This document shows, piece after piece, positions 28,184 to 64,000 of a stretch of 64,000 bases of DNA. A program made the position numbers and the translations under genes. Under the pieces are notes generated by a model. That model was not told where the DNA came from. It searched no databases and saw only the letters and a program-made list of their open reading frames with translations. The stretch is taken from the NCBI GenBank assembly GCA_963666515.2, contig OY762897.2, positions 2,240,001 to 2,304,000 of the forward strand, given 5' to 3'. The DNA comes from Candidatus Binatia bacterium (lineage in GTDB: Bacteria > Desulfobacterota > Binatia > UBA9968 > JAJDTQ01). Positions within the stretch are counted from its first letter, which is position 1; every line of letters begins with the position of its first letter.

Positions 28184-28437
28184 CGCGTTCCTCCTGTTGG
28201 GTTCCTTTCGGATAAACGAAAGTCTTCACTCTGATCTTTCTCGATGGCAGACGGCCTTTCCTTCTCAGCCTGTTTGCCAACCGAAACGCTGCGTTGTGGC
28301 CATATGAATTCCGGTGCGGCTGGGCGTTTTTTGATTCGGGACTTGGGGTCAGGATTTATGCCGCCCTTTTGAACATAACTCCCAATATGACGGCGGCCCG
28401 TCGGACGCTTGGTCGAGTTTTCCGGTCTGTCTGCCAT
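28180..28437 (-). CDS. small Lys/Pro/Arg-rich hypothetical protein
   Basis: AGGAG RBS 6 nt upstream of ATG, overlapping the stop of the upstream gene; its stop overlaps the downstream ATG (ATGA). Confidence 0.5.
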   Translation of the reverse strand: MADRPENSTKRPTGRRHIGSYVQKGGINPDPKSRIKKRPAAPEFIWPQRSVSVGKQAEKERPSAIEKDQSEDFRLSERNPTGGTR

Positions 28438-28446
28438 GCCGTACTC

Positions 28447-29082: not shown

Positions 29083-29297
29083 TCCTCAAACCCTGTGCCA
29101 CTATACCAAGGGACAACACCTCCAGCAAATCTGCTCATCCTCTCATTGGATTCCCTCCCCTCCTTGGACCCGGCACTCACTGAACAAGACTCCGGTTTGC
29201 TCCCGTTCCGCGATGTGCTAGAAACCCGTTGGCCGACACCCAAGGTCCCGATGCCGTCGAGCGGGTGCTCTGAGCGAGACCGGGGAATACCGATACC

Positions 29298-29894: not shown

Positions 29895-29909
29895 CAGAGC
29901 TTTCGCCGG

Positions 29910-29950
29910 CGTCCTTCGACTTGGCTTCGCGAAGCCTGTCCTGAGCCCGA
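29910..29950. repeat. degenerate CCTTCGAC-family REP-like repeat
   Basis: cgtccttcgacttggcttcgcgaagcctgtcctgagc shares ends with the 8848 and 49991 copies. Confidence 0.55.
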
Positions 29951-29976
29951 CGCCGACACAACCAAGGAGAACTTCC

Positions 29977-38332: not shown

Positions 38333-38959
38333 CTACCCTTCCGCCCTGGCGGCGGCTTTCCGCGCTTCCAGCTCCGCGGCCTCGGCCGCGGTCTTGCCCC
38401 ACAGGGGCGGGTCCTTGAGGTACTCTTCCTCTTCCGGCGTGTTCGGGCGTCCCAGGACCGCGTTGCGATGGGGGAAGCGGCCGAAGCGCTTGATGGCGGC
38501 ATGATGGCCGACCGCAGCCCTCATGGAATCCTCGTTACCGAGGCTGCCGTAGAGGACCAGCGCCCGTTCCTGGTCGGCCAGCCGTTCGCTGTGCTCGAAC
38601 GGCAGGTAGATGAAAGTCCTGGGCCAGCGGGCGAACCCCCGGTCGTAACCCTGCTCCAGGGCATACCCGGCGACCTCGCGGGCCTTGGCGTCGGTGGCGA
38701 AGGCGCGGGGCGTGCCGCGGTAGATGTTGCGCGGGAACTGGTCCAGGGCCATGATCAGGGTCAGGCAGTCCTCGGGCGTCCGCTTGAAGTGGTCCAACTC
38801 GCCGGCCGCGGCGCGCTCGTGAACCCCGGTGTAGTGATCGACCAGGTGCCGGTCGAACTCCGGGGTGGCGCGAAACCACACCTGGCGCTTCTCCATCTCG
38901 ACGCTCAGGTCCAGCGTGCCGAACCAGAAAGTGAGTATCTCTCTCGATAGAGCTTCCAC
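38333..38959 (-). CDS. DUF924 family protein
   Basis: ILTFWFG, LDQFPRNIYRG, YLPFEHSE, RFGRFPHRN..LGR; GTG start at 38959. Confidence 0.88.
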   Translation of the reverse strand: MEALSREILTFWFGTLDLSVEMEKRQVWFRATPEFDRHLVDHYTGVHERAAAGELDHFKRTPEDCLTLIMALDQFPRNIYRGTPRAFATDAKAREVAGYALEQGYDRGFARWPRTFIYLPFEHSERLADQERALVLYGSLGNEDSMRAAVGHHAAIKRFGRFPHRNAVLGRPNTPEEEEYLKDPPLWGKTAAEAAELEARKAAARAEG

Positions 38960-39061
38960 GCGTCCTCCGGCGAAAGAAAGGTCGCTGCAAGTCTTGACCA
39001 ACAGAGGTCCAATTGCAACACTGCCCAAGCGCGGGCGGGTCGATCCGGTCTCCGGGAGGTC

Positions 39062-40024
39062 ATTACGGCAAACTTCGACGACAAGGTCGCGGCAAGCGGC
39101 CGGTCCCTCCACAAGCAGAAGCTGCAAGTGCTTCAGGTCAACATGGGGAAGTACTGCAACCAGTCGTGCTTCCACTGCCACGTGGAGGCCGGGCCGGGCC
39201 GCAAGGAGATGATGGACCGCGCCACCGTGGACGACGTGCTGCGGTTCCTCGAAAACTCCGACATCCCCACCGTGGACATCACCGGCGGCGCGCCGGAGCT
39301 GAACCCCCACTTCGACCATCTCGTGGAATCCTGCAGGGACATGGGACGCCACGTGATGGACCGATGCAACCTCACGGTCTTCTACGAGGAAGGCAAGGAG
39401 TACCTGCCCGAGTTCTTCAAGCGCCACCGGGTCGAGGTGATCTGTTCCCTGCCCTGCTACACCAGGGAGAACGTGGACAGCCAGCGCGGCAACGGCACCT
39501 TTGAACTGAGCGTGCGCGGGCTGCAGGAACTGAACCGCCTGGGCTACGGCCGGCCCGGCTCGGGGCTGGAGCTGAATCTCGTCTACAACCCCATGGGCAA
39601 CTACCTGCCGCCGCCCCAGGAGCAACTCGAGGGCGACTACCGGCGCATGTTGGGCGAGGAGTTCGGCATCGTCTTCAACCACCTCTACTGCCTGACCAAC
39701 ATGCCCATCACCCGCTTCAGGAAATTCCTCAAGCAGCGGGGACAGTACGACGACTACCTGCAGCTCCTGGAGGACAACTTCAACGCCGAGACGGTGGAGA
39801 AGGTCATGTGCCGCGACCTCCTGAGCGTGGCGTGGGACGGCTCGGTGTACGACTGCGACTTCAACCAGATGCTCGACATGCCCCTGGGCCGCGTGAACGG
39901 GAAGAAGCCCCACATCCGGGAGTTCTCGGCAGCGGACTTCGAGGACCAGCCCATCCTCACCGCGAACCACTGCTACGCCTGCACCGCGGGCACCGGCAGC
40001 AGTTGCGGCGGCGCCCTGGTCTGA
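39062..40024 (+). CDS. arsS: ArsS-like radical SAM / Cys-rich protein (arsenosugar-biosynthesis family)
   Basis: LQVNMGKYCNQSCFHCHV, DITGGAPE, SLPCY, YDCDFNQML, HCYACTAGTGSSCGG; first canonical start is GTG 39128 but the family-like N-terminus extends to about 39062. Confidence 0.87.
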   Translation: MTANFDDKVAASGRSLHKQKLQVLQVNMGKYCNQSCFHCHVEAGPGRKEMMDRATVDDVLRFLENSDIPTVDITGGAPELNPHFDHLVESCRDMGRHVMDRCNLTVFYEEGKEYLPEFFKRHRVEVICSLPCYTRENVDSQRGNGTFELSVRGLQELNRLGYGRPGSGLELNLVYNPMGNYLPPPQEQLEGDYRRMLGEEFGIVFNHLYCLTNMPITRFRKFLKQRGQYDDYLQLLEDNFNAETVEKVMCRDLLSVAWDGSVYDCDFNQMLDMPLGRVNGKKPHIREFSAADFEDQPILTANHCYACTAGTGSSCGGALV

Positions 40025-40056
40025 CGCGCCGACGCCCGGCCGCGGACGACCCGTCC

Positions 40057-40734
40057 ATGCGGCTTTCCATCATCATCCCCGCCCTGAACGAGGAACGCGC
40101 CATCGCCGGCGCCGTCGGCAACGCGGCGCGCATCGAACCCCACGAGATCATCGTCGTGGACGGCGGCAGCACGGACCGCACCCCGGACATCGTGCGGGAC
40201 GGCCCGGCCCGGCTGGTGTTCTCCGCCAGGGGGCGCGCGGCGCAGATGAACGAGGGCGCCCGGCGCGCCGAAGGCGACGTGCTGCTGTTCCTCCACGCCG
40301 ACACCGCGCTGCCCGACACCGCAAGGCTCGACGTCGAAGGCGGCATGGCCGACCCGGAATGCGTGGGCGGCCGTTTCGATATCCGCCTGGACAGCGAGCG
40401 CCCGCTGCTCCGGGTGGTCGGCCGCATGATCAGCCTGCGTTCCCGTCTGACCCGGGTGGCCACCGGAGACCAGGCCATCTTCGTGCGGCGGTCCGCGTTC
40501 GACGGGCTGGGCGGCTTCCCCGAGATTCCCATCATGGAGGACGTGGCGTTCTGCCGCGCGCTCAAGAAGGAAGGACGCATCGCCTGCCTGCGCTCGCGGG
40601 TGGTCAGCTCGGCCCGGCGGTGGGAGCGGAACGGCCCGGTGCGGACCATCCTGCTCATGTGGGCGCTGAAGCTGCTCTTCCTCGCCGGAGTGCCGCCGGC
40701 GACCCTGAAGCGGCTCTACAGCGAGGCCCGCTAG
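40057..40734 (+). CDS. GT2 glycosyltransferase, TIGR04283-like (ArsS-associated)
   Basis: SIIIPALNE, VDGGSTD, GRAAQMN, FLHAD, GDQAIF, IMED, SARRW. Confidence 0.88.
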   Translation: MRLSIIIPALNEERAIAGAVGNAARIEPHEIIVVDGGSTDRTPDIVRDGPARLVFSARGRAAQMNEGARRAEGDVLLFLHADTALPDTARLDVEGGMADPECVGGRFDIRLDSERPLLRVVGRMISLRSRLTRVATGDQAIFVRRSAFDGLGGFPEIPIMEDVAFCRALKKEGRIACLRSRVVSSARRWERNGPVRTILLMWALKLLFLAGVPPATLKRLYSEAR

Positions 40735-40800
40735 TGCCTGTGCCCGGACAGCCGCCAACTTTGACCGTTTCGCCGGCTTTGTGTTAGGTTGGCGTTCCCG

Positions 40801-52873: not shown

Positions 52874-53806
52874 TCATTTCGGCATCGGCCCCACCAGCAG
52901 CGCGGGGTCGAGGCGGCGGCCGAACAGGTTGATGCGCCAGTCGAGGTGGGGGCCGGTGGAGCGGCCGGTGGAGCCGACCTCGGCGATGGGCTGTCCCTGC
53001 TTCACCCGCTGGCCCTTCTTTACCAGGATGCGCGACAGGTGGAGGAACGCGGACGAGAGGCCGTGGCCGTGGTCGACGATCATGGTGCCGCCGGAAAAGT
53101 ACATGTCCCGGTGCACCAAGGTGACCACGCCGGCGGCGGGCGCCGCCACCCGGGTGCCCTTGGGCGCGGCGATGTCGATGCCGTAGTGGGGACGGCGCGG
53201 CTCGCCGTTCAGGATGCGCTGGGAGCCGTAGACGCCGCTGATGCGGCCCTTTACGGGCCAGCGGAAGCCTCCGAGGAAGTCGGTGCGCGGGTCATCGACC
53301 TTGCGCGCGCGCTTCACCAGGGCGACCTCCCGGCGGATGCGCTTGAGATCCTCCTTGCTGGGCGTCACCTTGCGCGGCGGCAGGCCGTCGATGCGCTGAA
53401 CGTTGTACTTGCGGGGCTTGACCACCAGCCCGTACCGCTGGCGCCGTCCGTCCGGGAAGACCACCGACAGCACGGCCCGCGGCGGGGCGTCGCGCCCGAA
53501 GCCGACGAGGAACCAGCCGTCACGGGAGACCCGCACCCGCTCGCCCTCGAACTCCACGACGGAACCCGGCGCCACGCGCCCGCGCAGCAGACCGCCCTGG
53601 ATCCGCGCGCCGTCCAGTTGAACCGCAGCCTCAGCGGCCCGCGACGCATCCGCGGGTAGCAGCACGAACAACGCCGCCAGACAAAGCGCCGTCAACGTCC
53701 ACCGGGACCGCAAACCAGGTACGTTCGTAACAGGTACGTTCACGGGATCAACCAAGACTGACGCGGAGCAACGTATCCTTCCTGTTGTGTCGCCAAGCGT
53801 CTGCAT
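52874..53806 (-). CDS. M23 family peptidase
   Basis: HYGIDIA, HLS, GSTGRSTGPHLDW; true start probably downstream of 53806. Confidence 0.9.
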   Translation of the reverse strand: MQTLGDTTGRIRCSASVLVDPVNVPVTNVPGLRSRWTLTALCLAALFVLLPADASRAAEAAVQLDGARIQGGLLRGRVAPGSVVEFEGERVRVSRDGWFLVGFGRDAPPRAVLSVVFPDGRRQRYGLVVKPRKYNVQRIDGLPPRKVTPSKEDLKRIRREVALVKRARKVDDPRTDFLGGFRWPVKGRISGVYGSQRILNGEPRRPHYGIDIAAPKGTRVAAPAAGVVTLVHRDMYFSGGTMIVDHGHGLSSAFLHLSRILVKKGQRVKQGQPIAEVGSTGRSTGPHLDWRINLFGRRLDPALLVGPMPK

Positions 53807-53947
53807 CTACAACATATGGTGTATGCGGGCTCCGGTGTCAACCGACCGGCCGGCTGCGGTCTTGACTTGGCGCTGCTTCGGTGGTCCGATGGAATCGGAA
53901 CAGGCTGGCGGTCCCTGCGCGGTCGGACGGAAAGGGAAAGGCGCCCG

Positions 53948-54436
53948 ATGGCACAGTGCGGTGATGGTTCCGGAGACGGCGGCACGACGCGGCGCGGCAC
54001 TCTCGCGCTGATCCTCATGGGCGCGGGGCTCGTCTTGAGCTACGGCCTGCTGGCCGCCCAGGGCTTCCTGTTTCTCCTGCCCCGGCGCCTCCGGCCCGAG
54101 GTCCGCTGGCTGTTCGCCGGACGGCTGGACCACTACCGGGAAGGCGCCGTCCGCAAGTTCACCGGCCTCGACGGCACGGAAATCCTCATCAAGCGCAGTC
54201 CGGGCGGCATCGAGGCCTTCAGTTCGGTGTGCCCCCATCTCGGGTGTCGCGTCCACTGGGTGCCGTCCCGGAAAGAGTTCTTCTGTCCCTGCCACAACGC
54301 GGTGTTCGACGGCGACGGCGTGGCCGTCTCCGGTCCGCCCGCGGACGCGGGACAGCGCCTGGCGCGGGTTCCGCTGAGGGTCGACGACGCCAGCAACGTC
54401 GTCTACGTCGGCGTCAGGGACACGGGCAAGGGTTGA
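53948..54436 (+). CDS. Rieske 2Fe-2S subunit of a Rieske/cytochrome b complex
   Basis: Twin-Arg TRRGTL plus TM helix; CPHLGC and CPCH boxes; SGPP. Confidence 0.92.
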   Translation: MAQCGDGSGDGGTTRRGTLALILMGAGLVLSYGLLAAQGFLFLLPRRLRPEVRWLFAGRLDHYREGAVRKFTGLDGTEILIKRSPGGIEAFSSVCPHLGCRVHWVPSRKEFFCPCHNAVFDGDGVAVSGPPADAGQRLARVPLRVDDASNVVYVGVRDTGKG

Positions 54437-54443
54437 CGAAGCC

Positions 54444-55502
54444 ATGAGCAAGCCTCCCGGAGCCGGCCGCCTGCAAGCCATGTTCCCGTTCGACTGGGAG
54501 CTGCTGAGGCACGCCGGCGCCGAGCCCATCCCCAACCACCTGAAGAAGTGGTGGTTCTGCCTGGGCGGCACCGTCCTCTACCTCTTCATCGTCCAGGTGG
54601 TCACGGGCATCGCCCTGACCTTCTACTACGTGCCCTCCGCGGAGGAAGCCTACGCCAGCGTGGCCGCCATCACCCGCGAGGTCCGCTTCGGCTGGTTCAT
54701 CCGCTCGCTGCACAAGTGGGCCGCCAACCTCATGATCATCGCCGTGATGCTCCACATGCTGCGGGTGTTCGTCACCGGCGCCTACCGCCACCCGCGGCAG
54801 CTCAACTGGTGCGTGGGCTTCCTGCTGTTGCTGGTGACCCTGGGCTTCGGCTTCACGGGCTACTCGCTCGTCTTCGAGCAACTGAGCTTCTGGGGCGCCA
54901 CCGTGGCCACCAACCTGGCCGAGGCGGTGCCGCTGGCCGGGCCGTGGATGGCGCACTTCCTTCGCGGCGGCGCCGAGGTCGGCGGCGCCACGCTGACCCG
55001 CTTCTACATCCTCCACATCGGCGTGCTGCCGACGGTGGCGTTCGCGCTGCTGGCGCTGCACATCCTGCTGATCCGGCTGCAGGGCGTCACGGAACTGGAG
55101 CCGCCGGACGAAGAAGACACGGCCGGGAAACGCCACTTCCCCTTCTGGCCGGACCACGCCACCACCGAGATCCTGATCGGCGTGCTGCTGATGTATCTCC
55201 TGACCATCCTGGCCCTGGTCTTCCCCGCGGGGCTCGGGCCGGCCGCCGATCCCACGCAGACCCCCGATCACATCAAGCCCGAGTGGTTCTTCTATTTCAG
55301 CTTTCGCCTGCTCAAGCTGACGTCGCTGCGCGTGAGCGTGGCGCTGACCGTGGCCATGGGCGCCATCGCCTTCTTCTGGCCCTTCATCGAGGAATGGTGC
55401 CGGCGCCGCTGGCGGGTGCCCGACGGCGTCCCGGTGACCCTGGGCACCCTGGCCTTTCTGGTCTTTCTCGTGCTGACCGTGTGGGAATCCTTTGCCGACT
55501 GA
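54444..55502 (+). CDS. cytochrome b, b6-type fused to subunit IV
   Basis: WFCLGG (heme ci Cys), RSLH..MLH, ILH-x14-H, PEWF. Confidence 0.93.
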   Translation: MSKPPGAGRLQAMFPFDWELLRHAGAEPIPNHLKKWWFCLGGTVLYLFIVQVVTGIALTFYYVPSAEEAYASVAAITREVRFGWFIRSLHKWAANLMIIAVMLHMLRVFVTGAYRHPRQLNWCVGFLLLLVTLGFGFTGYSLVFEQLSFWGATVATNLAEAVPLAGPWMAHFLRGGAEVGGATLTRFYILHIGVLPTVAFALLALHILLIRLQGVTELEPPDEEDTAGKRHFPFWPDHATTEILIGVLLMYLLTILALVFPAGLGPAADPTQTPDHIKPEWFFYFSFRLLKLTSLRVSVALTVAMGAIAFFWPFIEEWCRRRWRVPDGVPVTLGTLAFLVFLVLTVWESFAD

Positions 55503-55526
55503 CCGTCACGAGTCTGGAGCCATGCC

Positions 55527-57122
55527 ATGAGCCTGACCTTCAAACGCTACGTCATTGCCGGCCTGTCCTTCCTCTTCCTCGGGGCGCTTCTGCTGGTGGC
55601 CTGGCAGGAGTCCCGGCGCCACCGGGTGGATCAGGGCCACGAGCCCGTGGTCACCGCGGCCAACCAGGCGTGCGTGACCTGCCACAAGGTCGATTCACCG
55701 GCCATGGTCATGCAGTGGGAGCAGTCCCGGCACGCCCGCTTCGGCGTGGGCTGCGTCGATTGCCACCGGGCGGTCGAGGGCGACATCGACGGCTGGATGC
55801 ACGAGGGGACGCTGGTCTCGGCGCTGGTGACGCCCCGCGACTGCGCCCGCTGCCACGTGCGGGAAGAGGAGCAGTTCGCGCGCAGCCACCACGCCCGCGC
55901 CGGCGAGATCCTGGCGAGCCTCGACAACGTGCTGGCGGAGAAGGCCGCCGGCATGCCCGGCAACATCGCGGACGCGGTCAACGGCTGCTGGCAGTGCCAC
56001 GGCAGCATCATCAGGTTCAAGCGGGACGCGGACGGCGCGGTGCTGCGCACGGGCAAGGAGAACAAGCCGGTCATCGACCCGGACACCTGGCCCAACAGCG
56101 GCATGGGGCGCCTCAACCCCGACGGCTCCAAGGGGTCGTGCCACGCGTGCCATTCACGCCACTCGTTCCAGGCCAAGCTGGCGCGGGCGCCGGAGAACTG
56201 CGGCAAGTGCCACATGGGACCCGACCATCCGCAGATCGAGATCTACAACGAGTCGAAGCACGGCATCGCCTTCTACGCCAACCGCGCGAACATGGCGCTG
56301 GACAAGGAAGGCGACTGGGTGCTGGGACGGGACTACGCCGCCGCGCCCACCTGCGCCACCTGCCACGTCAGCAGCCACATGACGCCGCAGGGCGTCCGCA
56401 CGGGCAACAAGCACGACGTGGGCGAGCGCATAAGCTGGACGCTGCGGCCGGTGATCAGCACCAAGCTCAACCGGGTCGTCTTCAAGGACGGCTACCAGGA
56501 AGACTACCCGGATACCCGGGCGCTGCCGGAGATCGGCGCCACCGTGGACACCGTCGAGAAGGTCGTGCGCAACGAGAGGCTGGTGAACCGGACGGTGCCG
56601 CGCCAGGTGGCCCGCATCGTGACCTGGGAGCAGCGGCGGGAGAACATGAAGCAGGTCTGCCGCAACTGCCACAACGACACCTACATCGACAACTTCTACC
56701 GCCAGTTCGACCAGCTCGTGGTGCTCTACAACGAGAAGTTCGCCCGCCCGGCGCAGCGGATCATGAACGAACTGAAGGCCGACGGCGTGCTCCGGGCCAA
56801 CGCCCCCTTCGAGCACGACGTGCAGTGGGACTTCTGGGAGCTGTGGCACCACGAGGGCCGCAGGGCGCGCCACGGCGCCAGCATGATGGGGCCGGACTAC
56901 ACCCACTGGCACGGCATGTACGAGGTCTCCAAGCACTTCTACCTGAAGTTCCTGCCCCACGTCATCAAGGCCGCTGCCACCAAGGGGCCGGAGATGAAGG
57001 ACAAGTACACCCGGCGGGTCCAGGAGCTGCTGGCGCGGCCCGAGAACGTTTGGCTCAAGGGCCTCAGCGCCGAGGAGGCGGAGGCGCTGCGCAAGGCGTA
57101 CGAGGAACGTTACGACCAGTGA
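55527..57122 (+). CDS. octaheme cytochrome c, hydroxylamine oxidoreductase (HAO)-like family
   Basis: Eight CxxCH motifs (CVTCH, CVDCH, CARCH, CWQCH, CHACH, CGKCH, CATCH, CRNCH); GPDHPQIEIYNESKHG; MMGPDYTHWHG; N-terminal TM/signal. Confidence 0.92.
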   Translation: MSLTFKRYVIAGLSFLFLGALLLVAWQESRRHRVDQGHEPVVTAANQACVTCHKVDSPAMVMQWEQSRHARFGVGCVDCHRAVEGDIDGWMHEGTLVSALVTPRDCARCHVREEEQFARSHHARAGEILASLDNVLAEKAAGMPGNIADAVNGCWQCHGSIIRFKRDADGAVLRTGKENKPVIDPDTWPNSGMGRLNPDGSKGSCHACHSRHSFQAKLARAPENCGKCHMGPDHPQIEIYNESKHGIAFYANRANMALDKEGDWVLGRDYAAAPTCATCHVSSHMTPQGVRTGNKHDVGERISWTLRPVISTKLNRVVFKDGYQEDYPDTRALPEIGATVDTVEKVVRNERLVNRTVPRQVARIVTWEQRRENMKQVCRNCHNDTYIDNFYRQFDQLVVLYNEKFARPAQRIMNELKADGVLRANAPFEHDVQWDFWELWHHEGRRARHGASMMGPDYTHWHGMYEVSKHFYLKFLPHVIKAAATKGPEMKDKYTRRVQELLARPENVWLKGLSAEEAEALRKAYEERYDQ

Positions 57123-57192: not shown

Positions 57193-58503
57193 TCAGGGCT
57201 TCGTGCCCACCGCCGAGTGGAACGGTTGCGAGATGAAGAACTGGTTGCCGGCCGAGGCAATCGCGTCCCGCCACTCCTCGGCCTCCTCCGGCGTCAGCCG
57301 CGAGGCCATGCGTTCCTGCTGCTGTTGCAACCGCTCCCCTGATGCGTAGGTGGCGTACTGCGGCAGCATGACCACGTCCCGGAGTCCGGCCCGCTCCATG
57401 CGCTCGTAGAGGCTCGCGTCCGCGCAACCGCCCCGCACCACGTCGCCGTAGCCGGTCTGGGCCTTGTGCTTGAGGTCGGACCGTAGCGGCAGATTGACCC
57501 ACCACGGCATGTCCAGGGAACGGACGATGGCCGCCACCTTGCCGCCGGGCCGGGTGACCCGAACCAACTGGGCCAGCATGGCGTCGGCGTCGCCTTCCTC
57601 CATGACCGTGAACGCCAGGGCTGCGTCGAACCGGCCGTCGGCGAACGGCAGTTCCTCGCCGTTGGCGCTCCGCCACTCGATGACGCCGTCGAGCCCTTCG
57701 CTCACCGCCAGCTTCCCCGCCTCGCGAAGCAGATAGTTGTTGATGTCCGCGCCCACGATGGGGTTGCGCTTATCGGTGTAGCGGGCCAGCCAACGCGCCA
57801 CCGTGCCGGCGCCGCAACCCACCTCCAGCACCGTCTGACCGGGTTCGAGCCCGACCTCGTCCACCACGCTCCGCACCACCCGCAGGTATCCGGGGCCGCG
57901 GGTCTCCAGGAAAGCCACCATGCCCAGGTAACGGCCGCCCAGGGTCACGGTCGTGTAACGCTCGGCGAGGGCGGGCAGCAGCGGATCCCACTGCGACGCC
58001 GCCAAGCCTAGCGGAAAGAGCAGCAGCGGCGGCCCCGATCCCCGGACCGTGTAGGAGATGCCGGCCTCCTCACCCTCCCCTTCCGGGATCTGAACCGACG
58101 GCAGCGGACTCTCCCTGTCCCGAACCGCGAGAAACTCCAGCATGGCCGACCCGACCTCGCCGGTGCGGTCCGCCATGACGTCCGCCCACATGGGGCTGAA
58201 GTAGTCGCGCAGCATGGTCAACGTGGTCCCCGGCAACCCGTCCACCGCACGCATGAGATCGCCCACCACGTTCCCTCCATCGCCCGATACGATCAGCAGC
58301 CGCGACGCATGGGGACGCAGCACCTCGGTCTTCATGCCCCGCGGACAGATGAGGGTGAGCGACGCCACCGCCGCCGGGTGCTGCTCCAGCAACCCGCTCC
58401 AGTCGCCGGGCAGGTAGGCCGCCACATGGGCCTTTTCGATGCCCAGGCGCCGCAGCAACTCGACGACACGGTCCTCCACCGAACGATTTTCCTGTGTGAC
58501 CAC
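57193..58503 (-). CDS. class I SAM methyltransferase with N-terminal alpha/beta-hydrolase-like region
   Basis: VLEVGCGAG, EELPFADGRFD, RVTRPGG; N-terminal LGIEKAHV and GSGPPLLL segments. Confidence 0.85.
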   Translation of the reverse strand: MVTQENRSVEDRVVELLRRLGIEKAHVAAYLPGDWSGLLEQHPAAVASLTLICPRGMKTEVLRPHASRLLIVSGDGGNVVGDLMRAVDGLPGTTLTMLRDYFSPMWADVMADRTGEVGSAMLEFLAVRDRESPLPSVQIPEGEGEEAGISYTVRGSGPPLLLFPLGLAASQWDPLLPALAERYTTVTLGGRYLGMVAFLETRGPGYLRVVRSVVDEVGLEPGQTVLEVGCGAGTVARWLARYTDKRNPIVGADINNYLLREAGKLAVSEGLDGVIEWRSANGEELPFADGRFDAALAFTVMEEGDADAMLAQLVRVTRPGGKVAAIVRSLDMPWWVNLPLRSDLKHKAQTGYGDVVRGGCADASLYERMERAGLRDVVMLPQYATYASGERLQQQQERMASRLTPEEAEEWRDAIASAGNQFFISQPFHSAVGTKP

Positions 58504-58715: not shown

Positions 58716-58771
58716 GGTGCAGGCTATGGCAGCCCGGCCCGGCGTGACGGGTGCGGGCGTTGAGCCTCGCC

Positions 58772-58800
58772 TTGACCCCTCTCCGCATTCACGCCACTAT
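58772..58800 (+). promoter_or_regulatory. possible sigma70 promoter of carboxyltransferase copy 1
   Basis: TTGACC-N17-CACTAT. Confidence 0.4.
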
Positions 58801-58836
58801 GAGCAGTCTGCAACAGCACATCTTTCAGGAGACCAC

Positions 58837-60327
58837 ATGAGCGACATTCACTTCATCGACACGACCCTGCGCGACGGCAACCAGAGCCTGTGGGCGCTCA
58901 ACATGAAGACCGCGGCCATGGTGGAGGCCGCGGAGCAGATGGACCAGGCGGGCTTCGAGTCCATGGAGTTCTTCGTCACCAACATGTTCAAGAAGTACGT
59001 GCGCGAGCACAAGGAGGACCCGTGGGACTGGCTGCGGGAAGGCACCAAGCGGCTGCGCAAGACCGAGCTGCGGCTCCACGGCGGGCTCAAGGGCGGGCTC
59101 GAGAAGAAGCCGGCGTCCATCCTCAGACTCATCATCCAGAAGGTGGTGGACAGCGGCATCACGCTGACGCGCACGTCCAATAGCTGGAACGACTACGAGG
59201 TCTTCGGCGAGGAAGTGAAGGGGCTGCGCGAGCTGGGCATGGAAACCGTGGTGAACCTCATCTACTCGGTGTCGCCCCGGCACACCGACGAGTACTACGC
59301 GCAGAAGGCCCGGGAAGCCGCGGCCATCAAGCCCTACCGCATCTGCTTCAAGGACGTGGGCGGGTTGCTCACGCCGGAGCGCACCCGCTCGCTGGTCCCC
59401 TTGGTGTTGGAGAACATCGGCGACACCCCGGTGGAGTTCCACGCCCACTGCAACAACGGCTTGGCGCCGCTCAACTACCTGGAAGCCATCGAGCTGGGCA
59501 TGACCACCATCCACACCAGCGTGCCGCCGCTGGCCAACGCCTCGGCCCAGCCCTCCATCTTCAACATGGTGCGGAACATCCGCGCCGTGGGGCACACGCC
59601 GCTGGTGGACGAAGAGGTGCTGCGGCCGGTGGAGCAGCACTTCACCTACGTGGCCAGGCGCGACGGCCTCCCCATCGGCAAGCCCGTGGAGTACAACCAC
59701 GGCCAGTACCTGCACCAGGTGCCCGGCGGCATGATCTCCAACTTCGTGCACCAGCTCAAGCTCGTGGGCATGGAGGACAAGCTGCCGGCGGCGCTGGAGG
59801 AGGCCGCGCGGGTGCGCGCCGAGTGGGGCTATCCCATCATGGTGACGCCATTGTCGCAGTTCGTGGGCACCCAGGCGGCGTTCAACGTCATCCTGGGCGA
59901 GCGCTACAAGGAGGTGGCAGACCAGTCCATCCAGTACGCCCTGGGCATCTGGGGCCGGGAAGGCGCCGAGCTCATGGACCCCGACGTCAAGGACAGAATC
60001 CTGAGCCGCCCCCGGGCCAAGGCCTGGACCGAATGGGAGCAGCCGGAGCCGTCGCTGGCGGAGTTGCGGGGACAGGTGGGTGGACCCTCGATTTCCGACG
60101 AGGAGCTGGTGCTGCGGGTCTACGCCGGCGTGGACGAGGTCAGGACCATGATGGAGTCCGGCCGCCCGCGCGAGTACCTGAGCGCCCGCCAGCCGCTGGT
60201 GCGGCTCATCAACGAGCTGACCAAGCAGAAGGAGTACACCCAGGTGTACATCCGCAAGCCGGGCTTCTCCCTCACCCTGGGGCGGAACGCCGACGGAGAC
60301 GCGACCGAAGGTACTGCCGCCGCGTAG
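58837..60327 (+). CDS. PycB/OadA-like carboxyltransferase without biotinyl domain (copy 1)
   Basis: DTTLRDGNQSLW, CFKDVGGLL, HAHC, HQVPGGM, GYPIMVTPLSQ; no MKM motif. Confidence 0.9.
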   Translation: MSDIHFIDTTLRDGNQSLWALNMKTAAMVEAAEQMDQAGFESMEFFVTNMFKKYVREHKEDPWDWLREGTKRLRKTELRLHGGLKGGLEKKPASILRLIIQKVVDSGITLTRTSNSWNDYEVFGEEVKGLRELGMETVVNLIYSVSPRHTDEYYAQKAREAAAIKPYRICFKDVGGLLTPERTRSLVPLVLENIGDTPVEFHAHCNNGLAPLNYLEAIELGMTTIHTSVPPLANASAQPSIFNMVRNIRAVGHTPLVDEEVLRPVEQHFTYVARRDGLPIGKPVEYNHGQYLHQVPGGMISNFVHQLKLVGMEDKLPAALEEAARVRAEWGYPIMVTPLSQFVGTQAAFNVILGERYKEVADQSIQYALGIWGREGAELMDPDVKDRILSRPRAKAWTEWEQPEPSLAELRGQVGGPSISDEELVLRVYAGVDEVRTMMESGRPREYLSARQPLVRLINELTKQKEYTQVYIRKPGFSLTLGRNADGDATEGTAAA

Positions 60328-60616: not shown

Positions 60617-60940
60617 GTGGGATGGCAGGTCGAAACCGTTTCCAGTGTCGATGCCGAAATCGCGGCCCTGCCGGTGAAGTTGCGTGCCCGGCTGGTGCGG
60701 CTGCTGGAGACAGTGGAGAACGTCGGTCTGGAGGCATTGCGGGAACCGCACGTCAAGCATCTCGAAGGCAAGCTCTGGGAACTACGGGTCAGGGCTGAAG
60801 GGGGGACCGCCAGGGGGATCTATGTGACAGCGGCGCAACGACGGGTGGTGGTCCTGCATGTGTTCGTAAAGAAGTCGCGGAGGACACCGCTTCGGGCTCT
60901 CGCGACAGCCAGGGAACGTATGAAGCAGGTGAAGCTATGA
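60617..60940 (+). CDS. RelE/HigB (Gp49-like) toxin
   Basis: EPHVKHLEGKLWELR, VLHVFVKKSRRTP. Confidence 0.9.
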   Translation: MGWQVETVSSVDAEIAALPVKLRARLVRLLETVENVGLEALREPHVKHLEGKLWELRVRAEGGTARGIYVTAAQRRVVVLHVFVKKSRRTPLRALATARERMKQVKL

Positions 60941-61221
60941 CCAGACTGAAGGAACTGAAGAAGCGTCTTATGGAAGACCCGGAATTCCGGGAGGAGTACG
61001 CGCGGATTGATGACGAGTACACGCTGATCGAGGCGCTGGTTCGTGCCCGCACGGCGGCGAAGCTGACGCAGGCGGAACTGGCCCGGCGCCTCGGCACGAC
61101 GCAGTCGGCCATCGCGCGGCTGGAGGGCGGCGGAGTGTCGCCGTCGTTTACCACCTTGCGCCGCTACGCTGAAGCGACCGGCACGCGGCTGACCGTTGAG
61201 TTGGTACAAGCCAACCGCTGA
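60937..61221 (+). CDS. HigA-like XRE HTH antitoxin
   Basis: DPEFREEY, LTQAELARRLGTTQSAIARLE; ATGA overlap with the toxin. Confidence 0.9.
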   Translation: MTRLKELKKRLMEDPEFREEYARIDDEYTLIEALVRARTAAKLTQAELARRLGTTQSAIARLEGGGVSPSFTTLRRYAEATGTRLTVELVQANR

Positions 61222-61303: not shown

Positions 61304-61638
61304 TCAACTCAGCACCCGCAAGGCGGTCTCCGGCATCTTGTCGAGAACCCGGGCAAGGCTCTGGCGGCGCCGGTGGGGCCGCGTTTGCCCTGCTCCCAGT
61401 TGCGGACCGTCTCGTGCGACACGTCGATGCGTCGCGCGAACTCCACCTGCGTAAGCCCGAGGCGCCGACGAACGCGGCGCGCGAACCGCGCCATGTCGCG
61501 CATCGCCTCGGCATCGTCCTCCCGCTGCTGCGATGCGAGGTCCGCCTCCGTGGCGCCGTCCACGACCGCATGATCGATCCTCCCCTCGGGCAGGCTGCGC
61601 GGATCGTCCGGATCAATCCTTACGCGCTTCGTGTTCAT
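61304..61638 (-). pseudogene. HTH antitoxin with C-terminal frameshift
   Basis: LGLTQVEFARRI..RNWEQGKRGP; a shifted frame after ARAL gives RVLDKMPETALRVLS-stop, implying a 1-nt deletion near 61362. Confidence 0.7.
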
Positions 61639-61772: not shown

Positions 61773-61986
61773 CAAAGGTCAATGATTGGCGGTTGCCCGC
61801 GATGAAAGGCGGGGGTGATCGGCGCCCGCCGCGTGTGCTAAGTTCGAGAATTCCGTTTGCAGGGCATTGGCAACAGCCGCGAATCAGAATCGCGCCCCAC
61901 AGGGCAGGACGGATGCGGGTGGACGCTCGGAGGCGCCACCGCCGCATCACGGGCGATTGCATGGCAACGACCACCGAGGAACACGC

Positions 61987-63477
61987 ATGAGCGACGTCAC
62001 ATTCGTGGACACCACGCTGCGGGACGGCAACCAGAGCCTGTGGGCCTTCAACATGAAGACCGCGGCCATGCTGGAAAGCATCGAGCGCATGGACCGGGCG
62101 GGCTTCGAGTCCATGGAGTTCTTCACCGCCACGATGTTCAAGAAGTACGTGCGCGAGCACAAGGAGAACCCGTGGCACTGGCTGCGGGAGGGCGCACGGC
62201 GCGCGCGCAACACCCCGTTACGGCTCCACGGCGGCATCAAGGGCGGACTGGAGAAGAAACCCACGTCGGTGGCGCGGCTGGTGGTCCAGCACGTCATCGA
62301 CAGCGGCATCACCCTGACCCGCACCTCCAACCCCTGGAACGACTACTCCGTATTCAAGGAGGACGTGGAGGCGCTGCGCGAGGTGGGCATGAACTGCGTG
62401 GTGAACCTGATCTACTCGGTGTCGCCGCGGCACACCGACGAGTACTACGCGCAGAAGGCCCGGGAAGCCGCCGCGCTGAAGCCCTGGCGCATCTGCTTCA
62501 AGGACGTGGGCGGCCTGCTCACCCCCGAGCGCACCCGGACACTGGTACCCCTCGTGCTGGACAACATCGGCGACGTGCCGGTGGAGTTCCACGCCCACTG
62601 CAACAACGGGCTGGCGCCGATCAACTACCTGGAAGCCATCGAGCTGGGCATGACCACCATCCACACCAGCGTGCCGCCCCTGGCCAACGGCTCGGCCCAG
62701 CCGTCGATCTTCAACATGCTCCGGAACGTACGCGCCATGGGCCATACCGCATCGGTGGACGAGGAAGTGCTGAAGCCGGTGCAGGAGCACTTCACCTTCG
62801 TCGCCAAGCGCGACGGCCTGCCCATGGGCGCGCCCGCGGCCTTCGACCAGTCCGTCTATGCCCACCAGGTGCCCGGCGGCATGATCGCCAACTTCCGCCA
62901 TCAACTGGGGTTGGTAGGCATGCTGGACAAGCTGCCGGCGGCGCTGGAGGAGGCCGCGCGGGTGCGCGCGGAGTGGGGCTATCCCATCATGGTGACGCCG
63001 CTGTCCCAGTTCGTCGGCACGCAGGCCGCCATCAACATCATCATGGGGGAACGCTACAAGCAGGTCACCGACCAGTCCATCCAGTACGCCCACGGCATCT
63101 GGGGCCGGGAGGGCGCGGAACTGATGGACCCCGACGTGAAGGACCGCATCCTGGGGCGGCCGCGCGCGAAGGACTGGGAAGGCTGGCAGCAGCCGGACCC
63201 GTCGCTCCCCGAGGTGCGGACGCAGCTCGGCAGCTCCTCCATGTCCGACGAGGAGCTGATCCTGCGGGTCTTCGCCGGGGACGAGGCGGTGGAGGAACTG
63301 CAGAACGCCGGCCGGCCCCGCGAGTACCTGAGCGCCAGCCAGCCGCTGGTGCGGCTCGTGAACGAGCTGACCAAGCAGCAGGAGTACACCCAGGTCTACA
63401 TCCGCAAGCCGGGCTTCTCCCTCACCCTGGGACGGAGCGCCGACGGCGAGGCGGCGGAAGACACCGCGGCCCTGTAG
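61987..63477 (+). CDS. PycB/OadA-like carboxyltransferase without biotinyl domain (copy 2)
   Basis: Same motifs and same length (496 aa) as copy 1; GAGGA RBS. Confidence 0.9.
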   Translation: MSDVTFVDTTLRDGNQSLWAFNMKTAAMLESIERMDRAGFESMEFFTATMFKKYVREHKENPWHWLREGARRARNTPLRLHGGIKGGLEKKPTSVARLVVQHVIDSGITLTRTSNPWNDYSVFKEDVEALREVGMNCVVNLIYSVSPRHTDEYYAQKAREAAALKPWRICFKDVGGLLTPERTRTLVPLVLDNIGDVPVEFHAHCNNGLAPINYLEAIELGMTTIHTSVPPLANGSAQPSIFNMLRNVRAMGHTASVDEEVLKPVQEHFTFVAKRDGLPMGAPAAFDQSVYAHQVPGGMIANFRHQLGLVGMLDKLPAALEEAARVRAEWGYPIMVTPLSQFVGTQAAINIIMGERYKQVTDQSIQYAHGIWGREGAELMDPDVKDRILGRPRAKDWEGWQQPDPSLPEVRTQLGSSSMSDEELILRVFAGDEAVEELQNAGRPREYLSASQPLVRLVNELTKQQEYTQVYIRKPGFSLTLGRSADGEAAEDTAAL

Positions 63478-63553: not shown

Positions 63554-64000
63554 ATGAGCGACGTCACATTCGTGGACACCACGCTGCGGGACGGCAACCA
63601 GAGCCTGTGGGCCTACAACATGAGGACCGCGGCCATGCTGGAGGCCATCGAGGGCATGGATCGGGCGGGCTTCGAGTCCATGGAGTTCTTCAGCGCCACC
63701 ATGATCAAGAAGTACGTGCGCGAGCACAAGGAGAACCCGTGGCACTGGATCCGTGAAGGCACCCGGCGCGCCCGCAACACTGGGCTGCGGATGCACGGCA
63801 GCATCCGGGGCGGGCTGGAGAAGAAGCCCACGGCAGTGGCCAAGCTGGTGGTCAGCCACCTGGTGGAGAACGGCATCCGCCTGACGCGCAACTCCAACCC
63901 GTGGAACGACTACTCGGTGTTCAAGCAGGAGGTGGACGACCTGCGCGAACTGGGCATGGATGCCGTGGCGAACATCATCTACTCGGTGTCGCCGCGGCAC
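63554..64000 (+). CDS. PycB/OadA-like carboxyltransferase (copy 3, runs off the window)
   Basis: MSDVTFVDTTLRDGNQSLWAYNMRTAAM..; open to the window end; not in the ORF track. Confidence 0.9.
   Translation, partial: MSDVTFVDTTLRDGNQSLWAYNMRTAAMLEAIEGMDRAGFESMEFFSATMIKKYVREHKENPWHWIREGTRRARNTGLRMHGSIRGGLEKKPTAVAKLVVSHLVENGIRLTRNSNPWNDYSVFKQEVDDLRELGMDAVANIIYSVSPRH

Follow-up and report, generated by a model that had tools for sequence, protein, structure and literature searches.

A Rieske/cytochrome b6-type core encoded with an octaheme HAO-superfamily protein in a Candidatus Binatia bacterium: a candidate quinol-driven reductase

We found a plus-strand operon of three genes, encoding in order a Rieske protein, a cytochrome b and an octaheme cytochrome c, in a 64-kb window of the Candidatus Binatia genome (the whole 64,000-nucleotide stretch analysed; Table 1). 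We consider it probable that the three products form one membrane complex that uses (mena)quinol to reduce nitrite, hydroxylamine or NO, with coupling by a Q cycle. Gene anatomy, protein families, cofactor ligands, synteny, the co-occurrence of membrane anchor and cassette, and a predicted contact surface between anchor and cytochrome b are directly supported by the data below. All sequence features described in an earlier note on this DNA are present at the positions it gives. Its compactness was confirmed, with intergenic gaps of exactly 7 and 24 bp, as was the reading of an operon free of c1 or other small cytochromes: the octaheme gene is its sole cytochrome c gene. Judged from the genes of the window, the host looks like an oxygen-using heterotroph; a LigB dioxygenase, a luciferase-like monooxygenase and a GMC oxidoreductase are also encoded there, and genes for nitrate reductase, nitrite transport or any other nitrogen-oxide function were not found within the 64 kb.

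Table 1. Features of the operon and its neighbours (positions in the window)
Feature	Position	Strand	Remarks
Upstream neighbour, M23 peptidase	52874-53806	opposite to operon	
Rieske [2Fe-2S] subunit	53948..54436	+	162 aa from ATG 53948; ORF open from 53816
Rieske twin-arginine motif RR	53990-53995	+	R15, R16 invariant in 25/25 sequences
Rieske single hydrophobic anchor helix, after RR	54002-54058	+	residues 19-37; hydropathy
Rieske cluster-binding box I, CPHLGC	54230-54247	+	
Rieske cluster-binding box II, CPCHNAVF	54284-54307	+	Ser and Tyr hydrogen-bond donors missing
Cytochrome b6 fused to subunit IV	54444..55502	+	352 aa; seven predicted membrane helices
Cys39 in WWFCLGG, haem-ci Cys position of cytochrome b6	54558..54560	+	aligns with CLGG of 7R0W
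Haem b ligands H90/H104 (13 residues between) and H191/H206 (14 between)	54711..55061	+	four His invariant, 25/25
Qo-site motif PEWF (PEWY type)	55278..55289	+	residues 279-282; P, E, W invariant in 25 sequences
HAO-superfamily octaheme cytochrome c (IhOCC / epsilon-Hao-like)	55527..57122	+	531 aa
Octaheme N-terminal membrane anchor	55548..55604	+	residues 8-26; one hydrophobic helix by hydropathy
Eight CxxCH haem-binding motifs	55671..56672	+	starts at residues 49, 76, 106, 154, 205, 225, 276, 378
Asp233-His234	56223..56228	+	aligned with active-site Asp267-His268 of Nitrosomonas HAO (HMMER)
Met453 and Trp461 (in PDYTHWHG)	56883..56909	+	epsilon-Hao signature at place of cross-link Tyr
Asn507, second candidate column for cross-link equivalent	57045..57047	+	putative assignment
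Downstream neighbour, methyltransferase	57193-58503	opposite to operon	

The Rieske protein (Pfam Rieske, E 6.7e-10) likely starts at the ATG in Table 1, because a GGAAAGG-type ribosome-binding stretch lies upstream and homologues show no alignment ahead of it, their matches beginning near residue 63 in the numbering of the long ORF. By its sequence it is of the Tat-exported type, and its best solved match is the Kuenenia Rieske protein 9RK4 (E 1.3e-17), followed by PetC of b6f. The lack of Ser and Tyr in box II, remarked on previously, extends to all 25 cassette-linked homologues compared: the motif is CPCH-x-[G/A]-x-F in 25/25, with Phe replacing Tyr and Gly or Ala replacing Ser in every one. 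In the yeast Rieske protein, loss of the Ser and Tyr donors lowered the potential by 130 and 65 mV (PMC12954380). These features support a low-potential type, lacking the donors of high-potential Rieske proteins.

Pfam matches (Cytochrome_B, E 4.3e-58; Cytochrom_B_C, E 2.3e-07) and solved relatives (cytochrome b6, 7R0W, best at E 2.4e-65; subunit IV, 1Q90_D, E 1.6e-11) support a b6-type cytochrome b, in which hydropathy predicts seven hydrophobic segments. The haem-ci Cys and the fused, PEW-bearing subunit IV that the first reading reported are both present (Cys39 and PEWF), and the His spacing proved to be 13 residues in one pair and 14 in the other. In b6f, the Cys of CLGG binds haem ci. Among cassette cytochromes b this column holds Cys in 22/25 and Ala in 3/25, and the three lacking it count against our preferred reading; the fourth residue of the Qo motif is Tyr in 18/25 and Phe in 7/25. 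Cytochrome b6f and Firmicute-type bc complexes share the spacing of the four His, the haem-ci Cys motif, the PEWY-type motif and the Tat export and disulfide cysteines of the Rieske protein. Unlike those, the operon fuses b6 and subunit IV, has a Rieske protein without the Ser/Tyr pair and contains no cytochrome f, c1 or dihaem c.

Solved relatives, profile and fold matches all bear out that the third gene encodes an HAO-like octaheme protein, with the eight CxxCH motifs, N-terminal anchor and PDYTHWHG motif (456-463) all present as first described. Its closest solved relative, however, is IhOCC of Ignicoccus hospitalis (4QO5; E 1.1e-42 by single sequence, 7.5e-61 by profile), and not an anammox or epsilonproteobacterial enzyme; the Kuenenia HAOr structure 6H5L is distant (E 2.6e-20). 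An AlphaFold2 model (pLDDT 94.3) gave Foldseek TM values of 0.66 to 4QO5, 0.53 to 6H5L and 0.49 to 1FGJ, and MccA and OTR structures were absent from its significant Foldseek matches. These results support membership of the HAO superfamily, with a full HAO/IhOCC fold predicted. The Cys and His of all eight haem motifs are invariant in 116 aligned sequences. The HMMER alignment to 1FGJ pairs its residue 236 with octaheme residue 202 and continues through GxDH; Asp267 and His268 of Nitrosomonas HAO are functional residues (PMC3814345), and of the 116 relatives, 101 keep the corresponding Asp and 97 the His.

The earlier note had expected Trp where oxidative HAO has its cross-linking Tyr. Trp461 is indeed present, with Met453 eight residues before it (Trp in 99 and Met in 112 of 116 sequences), but the HMMER alignment to Nitrosomonas HAO stopped at about residue 423 and a C-terminal profile retrieved no HAO. 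As that enzyme is not directly alignable at the site, the Trp461 assignment depends on a signature taken at second hand from a paper whose accessible part places, in epsilon-Hao, a Trp where nitrifiers have the cross-link Tyr, with a Met eight positions ahead of it (PMC8940962, citing Haase 2017). The second candidate column, at residue 507, holds His in 74, Tyr in 10, Asn in 7 and a gap in 22 of the 116; the Tyr occurs in 10 of 53 distant relatives, a distant sister group with PxYG, and a His-to-Tyr switch at the key site has been described (PMC12758564). Tyr thus stands at neither candidate site here (W461, N507), and the P460 haem is absent from IhOCC (PMC9250108). From the Met/Trp pair, the missing Tyr, the kinship to IhOCC and the conserved Asp/His we infer an enzyme of reductive type. 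That it instead oxidizes hydroxylamine, or scavenges NO or hydroxylamine in an aerobe, with the core acting as a tether or running in reverse and yielding no Q-cycle energy, seems to us very improbable. The oxygen-using character of the window, the inclusion of oxidative HAOs in the same superfamily and the Tyr of the sister group would suit such a role, whereas the lack of Tyr, the reductive signature and the conservation of all Qo and Qi features of cytochrome b speak against it. A Rieske/cytochrome b complex reducing quinone would, moreover, need energy input.

The octaheme family is very common, with relatives in at least 597 species genomes; its rarity was overstated in the earlier note, and the cassette is widespread. 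The distribution survey called for there covered the synteny of the 80 closest loci among those at least 597 matches, and found the octaheme gene immediately preceded by one for cytochrome b in 28, spanning more than ten phylum-level labels taken from record titles. The Rieske gene is also visible in 26 of these 28, the remaining two (L010 and L014) ending at a contig edge. Genes flanking the cassette are otherwise unrelated between loci, and thus the three genes move together as one unit. The invariance of all eight haem motifs, together with the gene order in 26 independent loci, argues that this unit is not a product of chance. At some cassette loci other reductases adjoin: L056 has a NapA-like gene close to the cassette, and in L022 a Nar/Nxr-like enzyme of the type II DMSO-reductase family is encoded immediately downstream.

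Adjoining reductases would fit an octaheme protein that is a mere electron wire, an interpretation we consider unlikely. Bacterial bc complexes often have a multihaem cytochrome in place of c1 (Dibrova 2013, cited in the accessible part of PMC5317091), and in NCBIfam our cytochrome b scores best against ExtP of the Geobacter selenite/tellurite cluster, although the 234.7 bits fall under the cut-off of 290. An enzyme is better suited to the retained Asp-His pair, to a predicted fold that is more than a simple haem wire, and to the identity of 69-95% across phyla among the best 120 relatives; the same protein also occurs in a stand-alone periplasmic form.

Physical association of the octaheme protein with the Rieske/cytochrome b core, as first suggested, is supported by cassette synteny, by the distribution of the anchor and by its predicted docking on cytochrome b. 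The anchor is present in 28/28 cassette-linked copies, all aligning from residue 1, and absent from the 52/52 stand-alone copies among the 80 closest loci, whose alignments start at residues 24-142; none of the 49 of these 52 with at least 1700 nt of upstream DNA has a Rieske or cytochrome b gene there. In 25 cassette sequences M1, L3, K6, L18, L21, L22, V24, A25, E28 and R33 are invariant. A complex prediction from shallow alignments, limited to cytochrome b, the Rieske protein and octaheme residues 1-60, scored 0.74 (runs 0.71-0.78; partner pLDDT at least 64) against 0.00 for the best of three controls, passing a mark reached by 116/157 solved complexes and 2/215 mismatched pairs. Predicted anchor contacts fall on cytochrome b residues 99-111, 276-284 and 326-350, though the three runs disagreed on contacts (agreement at least 0%). 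HAO-type enzymes are trimers and bc complexes dimers, a symmetry mismatch that counts against the proposed complex.

This symmetry mismatch, and the confinement of the prediction to the anchor region, would be accommodated if the genes were co-transcribed without forming a stable complex, the core reducing a diffusible carrier encoded elsewhere that in turn reduces the anchored octaheme enzyme; NapM was weighed as such a mediator in Caldithrix (PMC5317091, accessible part). We give this arrangement little credence. The operon has no carrier gene and its gaps leave no room for one, the conserved anchor is confined to cassette copies, the prediction passed with controls at zero, and the subunits of the Kuenenia R/b-3 complex all co-migrated, the HAO-like one included (PMC12954380). 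Against our own reading, AlphaFold3 gave no reasonable model of that anammox complex with its HAO-like subunit (PMC12954380).

The arrangement is not wholly new, and its rating in the note as the best candidate for a new energy-conserving module overstated its novelty: the anammox R/b-3 is known, and the same gene adjacency and proposed electron path were described for Caldithrix abyssi in 2017. According to the accessible part of that account (PMC5317091), Cabys_2558, 2557 and 2556 encode in the same order a Rieske protein, a cytochrome b and a Tyr-less Hao-type octaheme protein, with no monohaem c1, and electrons were proposed to pass from quinol through Rieske/cytochrome b to epsilon-Hao, possibly directly and perhaps electrogenically. 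There the genes form the end of a nap cluster and the authors preferred the tetrahaem NapM as mediator, whereas the Binatia cassette is isolated, with unrelated genes on either side; we assume orthology from the published description, not from sequences. R/b-3 of Kuenenia stuttgartiensis (kuste4569-4574) likewise has a b6-like cytochrome b, a subunit-IV-like part and an HAO-like octaheme protein, Kuste4574, a proposed nitrite reducer whose complex subunits co-migrate (PMC12954380, PMC12485887), and a Kuenenia Rieske protein (9RK4) is the best solved match of ours. It differs in its six genes, among which are those for an additional multihaem cytochrome c and an NAD(P) oxidoreductase, in its separate cytochrome b and subunit IV, in a Rieske protein with Ser127 and Tyr129 in place and a titrated potential of +303 mV (PMC12954380), and in that Kuste4574 has been described as a close HAOr homologue, whereas our protein is much nearer IhOCC than HAOr.

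IhOCC is membrane-associated and carries eight haems in the HAO arrangement without the P460 cross-link (PMC9250108), but it is archaeal, shares only 22% identity in structural alignment and stops shortly past the helix after the W461 region, the protein here being about 45 residues longer C-terminally; the accessible part of PMC4429474 reports no Rieske/cytochrome b partner for it. Epsilonproteobacterial epsilon-Hao and Kuenenia HAOr (Kustc0458) are Tyr-less reductive enzymes converting nitrite to ammonium or NO (PMC8042395) and match in the Trp/Met signature as relayed in PMC8940962; HAOr itself is only distantly similar. They differ in being soluble or paired with NapC/NrfH-type or dihaem cytochromes, with no Rieske/cytochrome b core.

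Sulfur or another non-nitrogen compound (sulfite, tetrathionate, polysulfide, a metal or metalloid) is an unlikely substrate. Ignicoccus hospitalis is a sulfur-reducing archaeon, and the physiological substrate and in vivo role of IhOCC are not known according to the accessible part of PMC4429474; the related octaheme families MccA and OTR work on sulfur compounds (PMC9250108), and the window is devoid of nitrogen-cycle genes. Against this, IhOCC has been termed an octaheme nitrite reductase (PMC9250108, citing Parey 2016), epsilon-Hao proteins reduce nitrite and hydroxylamine in vitro (PMC8042395), and MccA and OTR are missing from the fold matches. The cassette neighbours in L056, L022 and, in the published excerpt, Caldithrix are Nap- or Nar-like, not sulfur genes, which suggests a nitrogen-oxide role.

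In the nitrogen-reducing complex that we favour, the b6-type core would oxidize a quinol, probably a low-potential one such as menaquinol, and the high-potential branch would end in a catalytic octaheme enzyme replacing cytochrome c1 or f and tethered to the membrane through a helix at its own N-terminus. Electrons would pass from quinol at the Qo site to the Rieske cluster, to the haems just past the anchor and down the haem chain to a five-coordinate catalytic haem, where nitrite, hydroxylamine or NO may be reduced, to ammonium or NO. The second electron would reach the Qi site by way of haems bL and bH (and ci), and we therefore propose that a Q cycle links reduction of the nitrogen compound to proton translocation. 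Of the original quinol-driven reductase reading, the b6-type core, low-potential Rieske protein, HAO-type octaheme protein and their association drew support, while assembly itself, the quinol type, reductive direction, substrate, product and energy coupling are what we infer. If this scheme is correct, quinol oxidation would be joined directly to an octaheme enzyme, and nitrite or related nitrogen compounds could be respired by this route.

We find that the octaheme gene of Candidatus Binatia belongs to a compact cassette with a Rieske gene and a cytochrome b gene, and that this trio recurs in other genomes. That the three products form one complex, as an earlier note made from the sequence had proposed, is plausible, and is better supported now by synteny, by co-occurrence of a membrane anchor with the cassette, by a predicted interface and by a reductive sequence signature.

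The cassette genes, separated by gaps of 7 and 24 bp, lie between unrelated minus-strand genes (table below); the operon is thus self-contained and leaves no space for a gene of a small cytochrome. The cassette lacks genes for c1, f and dihaem c, which leaves the anchored octaheme protein, judged by gene content, as the sole candidate acceptor for Rieske electrons within the operon. No sigma-70-like promoter was found at the operon and no convincing terminator flanks it. All motifs cited in the earlier note were recovered in place in the three ORFs: the Rieske boxes CPHLGC and CPCHNAVF; WWFCLGG and PEWF of cytochrome b, with its His pairs spaced by 13 and 14; and the third protein's eight CxxCH motifs, its hydrophobic N-terminal helix (residues 8-26) and PDYTHWHG (456-463). 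The 64-kb window holds no nitrogen-cycle genes, and its remaining genes (LigB dioxygenase, luciferase-like monooxygenase, GMC oxidoreductase) fit an oxygen-using heterotroph.

Features of the window and of loci around octaheme relatives (L numbers, coordinates within each locus)
Feature	Position	Strand	Remark
Rieske ORF	53816-54436	+	ORF reading; likely start ATG 53948
Cytochrome b ORF	54444-55502	+	352 aa
Octaheme ORF	55527-57122	+	third gene of trio
M23 peptidase	52874-53806	-	flank of operon, unrelated
Class I methyltransferase	57193-58503	-	flank of operon, unrelated
Fic-domain protein	48246-49244		small mobile-type module near cassette
Phd/YefM-like antitoxin and PIN toxin	49300-49936		small mobile-type module near cassette
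Gp49-like protein and HTH partner	60617-61221		small mobile-type module near cassette
Another HTH gene	61309-61638	-	adjoins Gp49-like/HTH pair
HMGL-like and PYC_OADA carboxylase domains	58717-60327		first of three successive paralogues
HMGL-like and PYC_OADA carboxylase domains	61867-63477		second of three paralogues
HMGL-like domain	63554-64000		third of three paralogues; continues past window end
ORF of about 205 aa	L008:7615-8232, L011:7604-8215, L053:7609-8238, L061:7618-8223, L052:4663-5280		also in L009, L010, L014, L039
Cytochrome c/haem b (EB_dh) protein and 1172-aa type II DMSO-reductase-family enzyme (Nar/Nxr-like)	L022:6837-11905		directly 3' of cassette
NapA-like gene	L056:10133-12526		about 2.5 kb downstream of cassette
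Tetrahaem cytochrome, NrfC/TtrB-like FeS protein and NrfD-like membrane protein (upstream); NapA-like (downstream)	L074:3297-5853 and 9326-11713		

The G+C content of the window is high (about 0.57-0.70 in 2-kb blocks), with a dip to 0.568 at 28001-30000 against about 0.65-0.70 elsewhere; at about 28200-29300 there is an apparent gene-free stretch with dienelactone hydrolase and HAD hydrolase genes on either side. No tRNA was found in the whole window. Two very long minus-strand ORFs at 38333-42849 (545 and 958 aa, first-codon-position G+C of 0.82-0.93) were rejected as shadows of plus-strand genes, namely radical SAM/DUF3641, GT2 glycosyltransferase, class III aminotransferase and ABC permease genes; on that minus strand, the DUF924 part near 38333-39000 alone looks real. 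The HMGL-like paralogues are interrupted by a toxin-antitoxin-like pair, and also flank the cassette in two of the closest loci (L001 and L002).

The Rieske protein (Pfam Rieske, E = 6.7e-10) shares its main features with 25 cassette-linked sequences, all of which keep CPHLGC and CPCH, comprising the cluster ligands and two disulfide cysteines, together with an invariant twin-arginine motif that precedes a single hydrophobic helix. In all 25, box II has the form CPCH-x-[G/A]-x-F, and Ser and Tyr are absent. As an excerpt of PMC12954380 has it, these Ser and Tyr residues lift the Rieske potential via hydrogen bonds, and yeast Rieske without these donors loses 130 and 65 mV; the same excerpt reports that Kuste4569 of Kuenenia, which keeps both, titrates at +303 mV and that a Tyr-less Rieske protein can still reach +335 mV. 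It is reasonable to infer from the box II sequences that the Rieske protein of the cassette is low-potential and, in turn, that its quinol donor is low-potential too.

Cytochrome b matches Pfam Cytochrome_B and Cytochrom_B_C. Its profile finds cytochrome b6 (7R0W, E = 2.4e-65) as the best match among solved structures, and its C-terminal third matches subunit IV of b6f (1Q90_D, E = 1.6e-11). With seven predicted helices and both parts in one 352-aa ORF, it is therefore a fused b6/subunit IV, and the separate polypeptides of the b6 type are not seen. Helices B and D each carry a His pair (H90/H104 and H191/H206), and all 25 cassette cytochromes b keep these four residues; 13 residues lie between the helix-B pair and 14 between the helix-D pair. 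A 14-residue helix-D spacing tells b6 from bc1. Cys39 lines up with the CLGG motif in cytochrome b6 (CxGG, the position of covalent haem ci), and this putative haem-ci Cys is kept in 22 of the 25 sequences, with Ala in 3. The Qo motif is PEWF in the window; across the 25 sequences PEW is invariant and the fourth residue is Tyr or Phe. The NCBIfam equivalogs for the Geobacter Ext cluster (ExtO/P/Q) that were scored stayed below their cut-offs (ExtP, 234.7 against 290; ExtQ, 22.2 against 150).

From its sequence and modelled fold, we conclude that the octaheme protein is a member of the IhOCC-like branch of the HAO superfamily. The nearest solved structure is IhOCC of Ignicoccus hospitalis (4QO5; E = 1.1e-42, profile E = 7.5e-61), followed in the sequence search by the reductive Kuenenia HAOr (6H5L) and then by oxidative HAO, HOX and HDH structures; the NCBIfam hydrazine dehydrogenase equivalog reached 64.7 bits, where its cut-off is 900. 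Eight CxxCH motifs follow the conserved HAO-superfamily order, and all eight are invariant in 116 relatives. An AlphaFold2 model built on the 116-sequence alignment was confident (pLDDT 94.3, pTM 0.87), a run with 23 sequences (pLDDT 61.5) having been set aside. Long C-terminal helices at 384-418, 431-452 and 456-484 reproduce the HAO fold. Foldseek ranked 4QO5 first (TM 0.66), then HAO-family entries only (TM 0.48-0.53), with E from 2.9e-22 to 1.5e-09 for 4QO5, 6H5L, 1FGJ, 6T5E, 4N4J and 6HIF; NrfA and ONR were not significant in this search (E > 0.01). In the alignment to Nitrosomonas HAO, Asp233-His234 fall in its GxDH stretch, where Asp267/His268 are functional residues (PMC3814345).

The cross-link site bears on the direction of catalysis. 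According to the available part of PMC8940962, which cites Haase 2017, epsilon-Hao has Trp where nitrifiers have Tyr, plus a conserved Met eight residues earlier, and a 2026 preprint describes Trp at the cross-link site in another anammox HAO-like protein. In the window protein, M453 and W461 match the Met(-8)/Trp spacing of epsilon-Hao exactly; both are invariant in 63 close relatives, and overall 112 of 116 sequences have the Met and 99 the Trp. The Trp that the earlier note had expected at this site is to this extent borne out, as a sequence-based match to the signature in that part of PMC8940962 rather than a structural placement.

Haem-8 spacing and a group of sequences with PxYG at column 507 would instead place the site near residues 486-509. 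We did not adopt this placement, because the Met(-8)/Trp signature excerpted from PMC8940962 fits 453/461 exactly, and it is kept as an alternative. Reductive forms have His and oxidative forms Tyr at a key site (PMC12758564), and column 507 holds His in 74, Tyr in 10, Asn in 7 and a gap in 22 of 116 sequences. With Asn at this column in the window protein, both placements lead to one conclusion: as far as its sequence tells, the octaheme protein has no cross-linking Tyr, whether the site is assigned to 461 or to 507. Neither candidate, W461 or N507, is a Tyr like the cross-linking Tyr467 of Nitrosomonas HAO (NeHAO, 1FGJ), to which HMMER gave no alignment in this region. NeHAO does match the octaheme profile (E = 8e-22), and in phmmer and profile searches against the PDB 1FGJ aligned no further than about query residue 423. 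A C-terminal-only profile found 4QO5 alone in the PDB (E = 0.085) and no HAO, and two distant representatives tried as bridges (P0185, P0189) had 4QO5 as their own nearest match and yielded no C-terminal HAO alignment.

The PxYG motif lies near the C-terminus of P0165, P0171, P0178, P0183, P0189, P0192, P0208 and P0262, distant representatives that form a sister group within the IhOCC-like branch. Its Tyr sits at the column that is His in the main family and Asn in the window, and Tyr occurs there in 10 of 53 distant representatives, which were drawn from the best 150 of 2440 matching clusters, down to E = 1.2e-50. Judging from the motif, this sister group could consist of oxidative enzymes with a Tyr cross-link that lie outside the classical HAO clade. 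They are consistent with the separate His-to-Tyr switch in Desulfobacterota described in PMC12758564.

The octaheme family is very large, with only 2 of 8000 scored candidates not significant, 2440 clusters (50% identity) matching the profile and at least 597 matching stretches of species genomes; the best 120 relatives are 69-95% identical and mostly exactly 531 aa long. Among the 80 loci kept of these at least 597 matches, to which all synteny counts refer, cytochrome b lies directly upstream of the octaheme gene in 28. A Rieske gene is also seen in 26 of the 28, L010 and L014 reaching the contig end. The survey proposed in the earlier note thus found the full trio in 26 of 80 loci. Going by their record titles, the 28 cassette loci carry more than ten phylum-level labels, covering Binatia, Syntrophobacterales-labelled MAGs, Latescibacterota, Deltaproteobacteria/Myxococcota, Gemmatimonas, the FCB group, Ignavibacteriota, Bacteroidota, Thermoanaerobaculia/Acidobacteriota, Planctomycetales, Anaerolineae, Zixibacteria and KSB1. 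Flanking genes are common to the window and L001-L003 (90-92% identity, the closest among the 80), which points most likely to a Binatia-like source for the window; they differ outside that lineage. By gene order, then, the three cassette genes are a unit that moves together. No flanking gene conserved across phyla was found among the loci compared, and we therefore claim no further subunit for the window.

Directly 3' of the octaheme gene, 9 of the 28 cassette loci and none of the 52 stand-alone loci have a conserved ORF of about 205 aa. It has invariant WGWH and FYQGWQDR motifs and two invariant Cys, with no Pfam or NCBIfam match or obvious signal peptide, and may be an accessory or maturation factor; it does not occur in the window. 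In a branch 48-51% identical to the window protein (L071-L077 and L080, a Desulfocapsa/Desulfobulbaceae group), another quinol module lies upstream (L074 in the table). From this gene content, one catalytic subunit seems to have been combined with different membrane modules. The plasmid collection holds distant homologues only, at most 38% identical, including proteins annotated as multihaem c-type cytochromes on NZ_CP090010.1 (Desulfobaculum bizertense) and NZ_AP021877.1 (Desulfosarcina ovata) with 37-38% identity over 82% of the length.

The membrane anchor co-occurs with the cassette. All 28 cassette-linked octaheme proteins align from residue 1, with the N-terminal helix conserved, and all 52 stand-alone ones align only from residues 24-142, with N-termini that are signal-peptide-like or unrelated; Rieske and cytochrome b genes are absent within at least 1700 nt upstream in 49 of the 52. 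When the cassette label is mapped on a FastTree phylogeny built from the mature domains, it requires 3 changes against a mean of 22.7 in shuffles. Internal support is weak, and so we make no claim about the order of events inside the cassette clade. Twelve stand-alone rows (L020, L021, L040, L042, L043, L046, L060, L062-L065, L079) from Brocadia and Scalindua anammox bacteria and other Planctomycetota share 64-72% identity with the window protein, have no Rieske or cytochrome b gene alongside, and form a clade that nests among cassette-linked sequences at weak support (90-93, SH-like). These stand-alone anammox paralogues may descend from the cassette.

Complex prediction with cytochrome b, Rieske and octaheme residues 1-60 scored 0.74 (three runs, 0.71-0.78); of 157 solved complexes, 116 attain such a mark, as do 2 of 215 mismatched pairs. 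The highest score among three controls was 0.00. Partner pLDDT was at least 64 and between-run contact agreement at least 0%. The anchor is predicted to contact cytochrome b at residues 99-111, 276-284 and 326-350. The model thus supports binding of the octaheme anchor to cytochrome b; of the association expected in the earlier note, the docking of the anchor is the part backed by this prediction, and the haem domain lies outside the residues modelled.

The module is less novel than the earlier note had claimed. An excerpt of the Caldithrix abyssi genome paper (PMC5317091) already describes adjoining Rieske, cytochrome b and epsilon-Hao genes and proposes the same electron path. In the open-access full-text literature, we found no biochemical study of a non-anammox cassette and no description beyond that genome paper. 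Judging from the available part of PMC12954380, the only such complex with experimental support, namely co-migration, is R/b-3 of Kuenenia stuttgartiensis. As excerpted there, R/b-3 has six genes, including an extra multihaem cytochrome c and an NAD(P) oxidoreductase, compared with three here; its b6 and subunit IV are split, whereas they are fused here; and its high-potential Rieske protein has the Ser and Tyr that are both absent here. Its HAO-like subunit is, by description, a close homologue of HAOr, whereas the octaheme protein here falls in the IhOCC-like branch. For this reason, the association of the octaheme protein with Rieske/cytochrome b may have arisen separately from R/b-3.

We tentatively suggest, as a possibility short of probable, that a catalytic octaheme protein stands in place of cytochrome c1 or f, giving a three-subunit quinol oxidase and terminal nitrite (or NO or hydroxylamine) reductase that conserves energy through a Q cycle. 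In the electron path that we propose, the Qo site would oxidise quinol; one electron would pass from the Rieske cluster along the haem chain of the anchored octaheme protein to the catalytic haem, and the other through the b haems across the membrane to the Qi site. Because a short linker joins them to the anchor, the haems of motifs one and two (residues 49 and 76) would lie near the membrane surface and would be reachable by the Rieske head. HAO-type enzymes are trimers and bc complexes dimers, a symmetry mismatch. By analogy with epsilon-Hao, which reduces nitrite and NH2OH in vitro, with HAOr, which turns nitrite into NO (both PMC8042395), and with IhOCC, termed an octaheme nitrite reductase (PMC9250108), the substrate would most likely be nitrite, hydroxylamine or NO. 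Some relatives of the cassette have a nitrogen context, with a NapA-like gene near L056 and a Nar/Nxr-like enzyme after the L022 cassette, and the Caldithrix cassette lies, in the excerpt of PMC5317091, at the end of a nap cluster.

The cassette is compact, conserved and widespread, being found in 28 of the 80 closest loci of at least 597 genomes with a relative. Known ammonifying and NO-forming nitrite reductases draw electrons from NrfH/NapC-type or soluble carriers, with little or no energy conserved at that step. If our suggestion is true, wiring a Rieske/cytochrome b core to the reductase would make the reduction of nitrite (or NO or hydroxylamine) electrogenic, and would alter the growth yield and competitiveness to be expected in its carriers. 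Many of these lineages are known from metagenomes only, including Binatia, Latescibacterota, Zixibacteria, KSB1, Ignavibacteriota and Thermoanaerobaculia. Being simpler than the six-subunit anammox complex, the cassette also offers a model for electron handover from a Rieske protein to a multihaem enzyme, and suits study of how a trimeric enzyme would fit a dimeric bc core, a likely mismatch. Annotation pipelines often call the octaheme genes hydroxylamine dehydrogenase, a label that can mislead on nitrification. As the cassette occurs under so many phylum labels that are frequent in soil, sediment and groundwater, it would, if our suggestion holds, represent an overlooked route of energy-conserving nitrite reduction, missed by surveys of nrfA, nirK and nirS.
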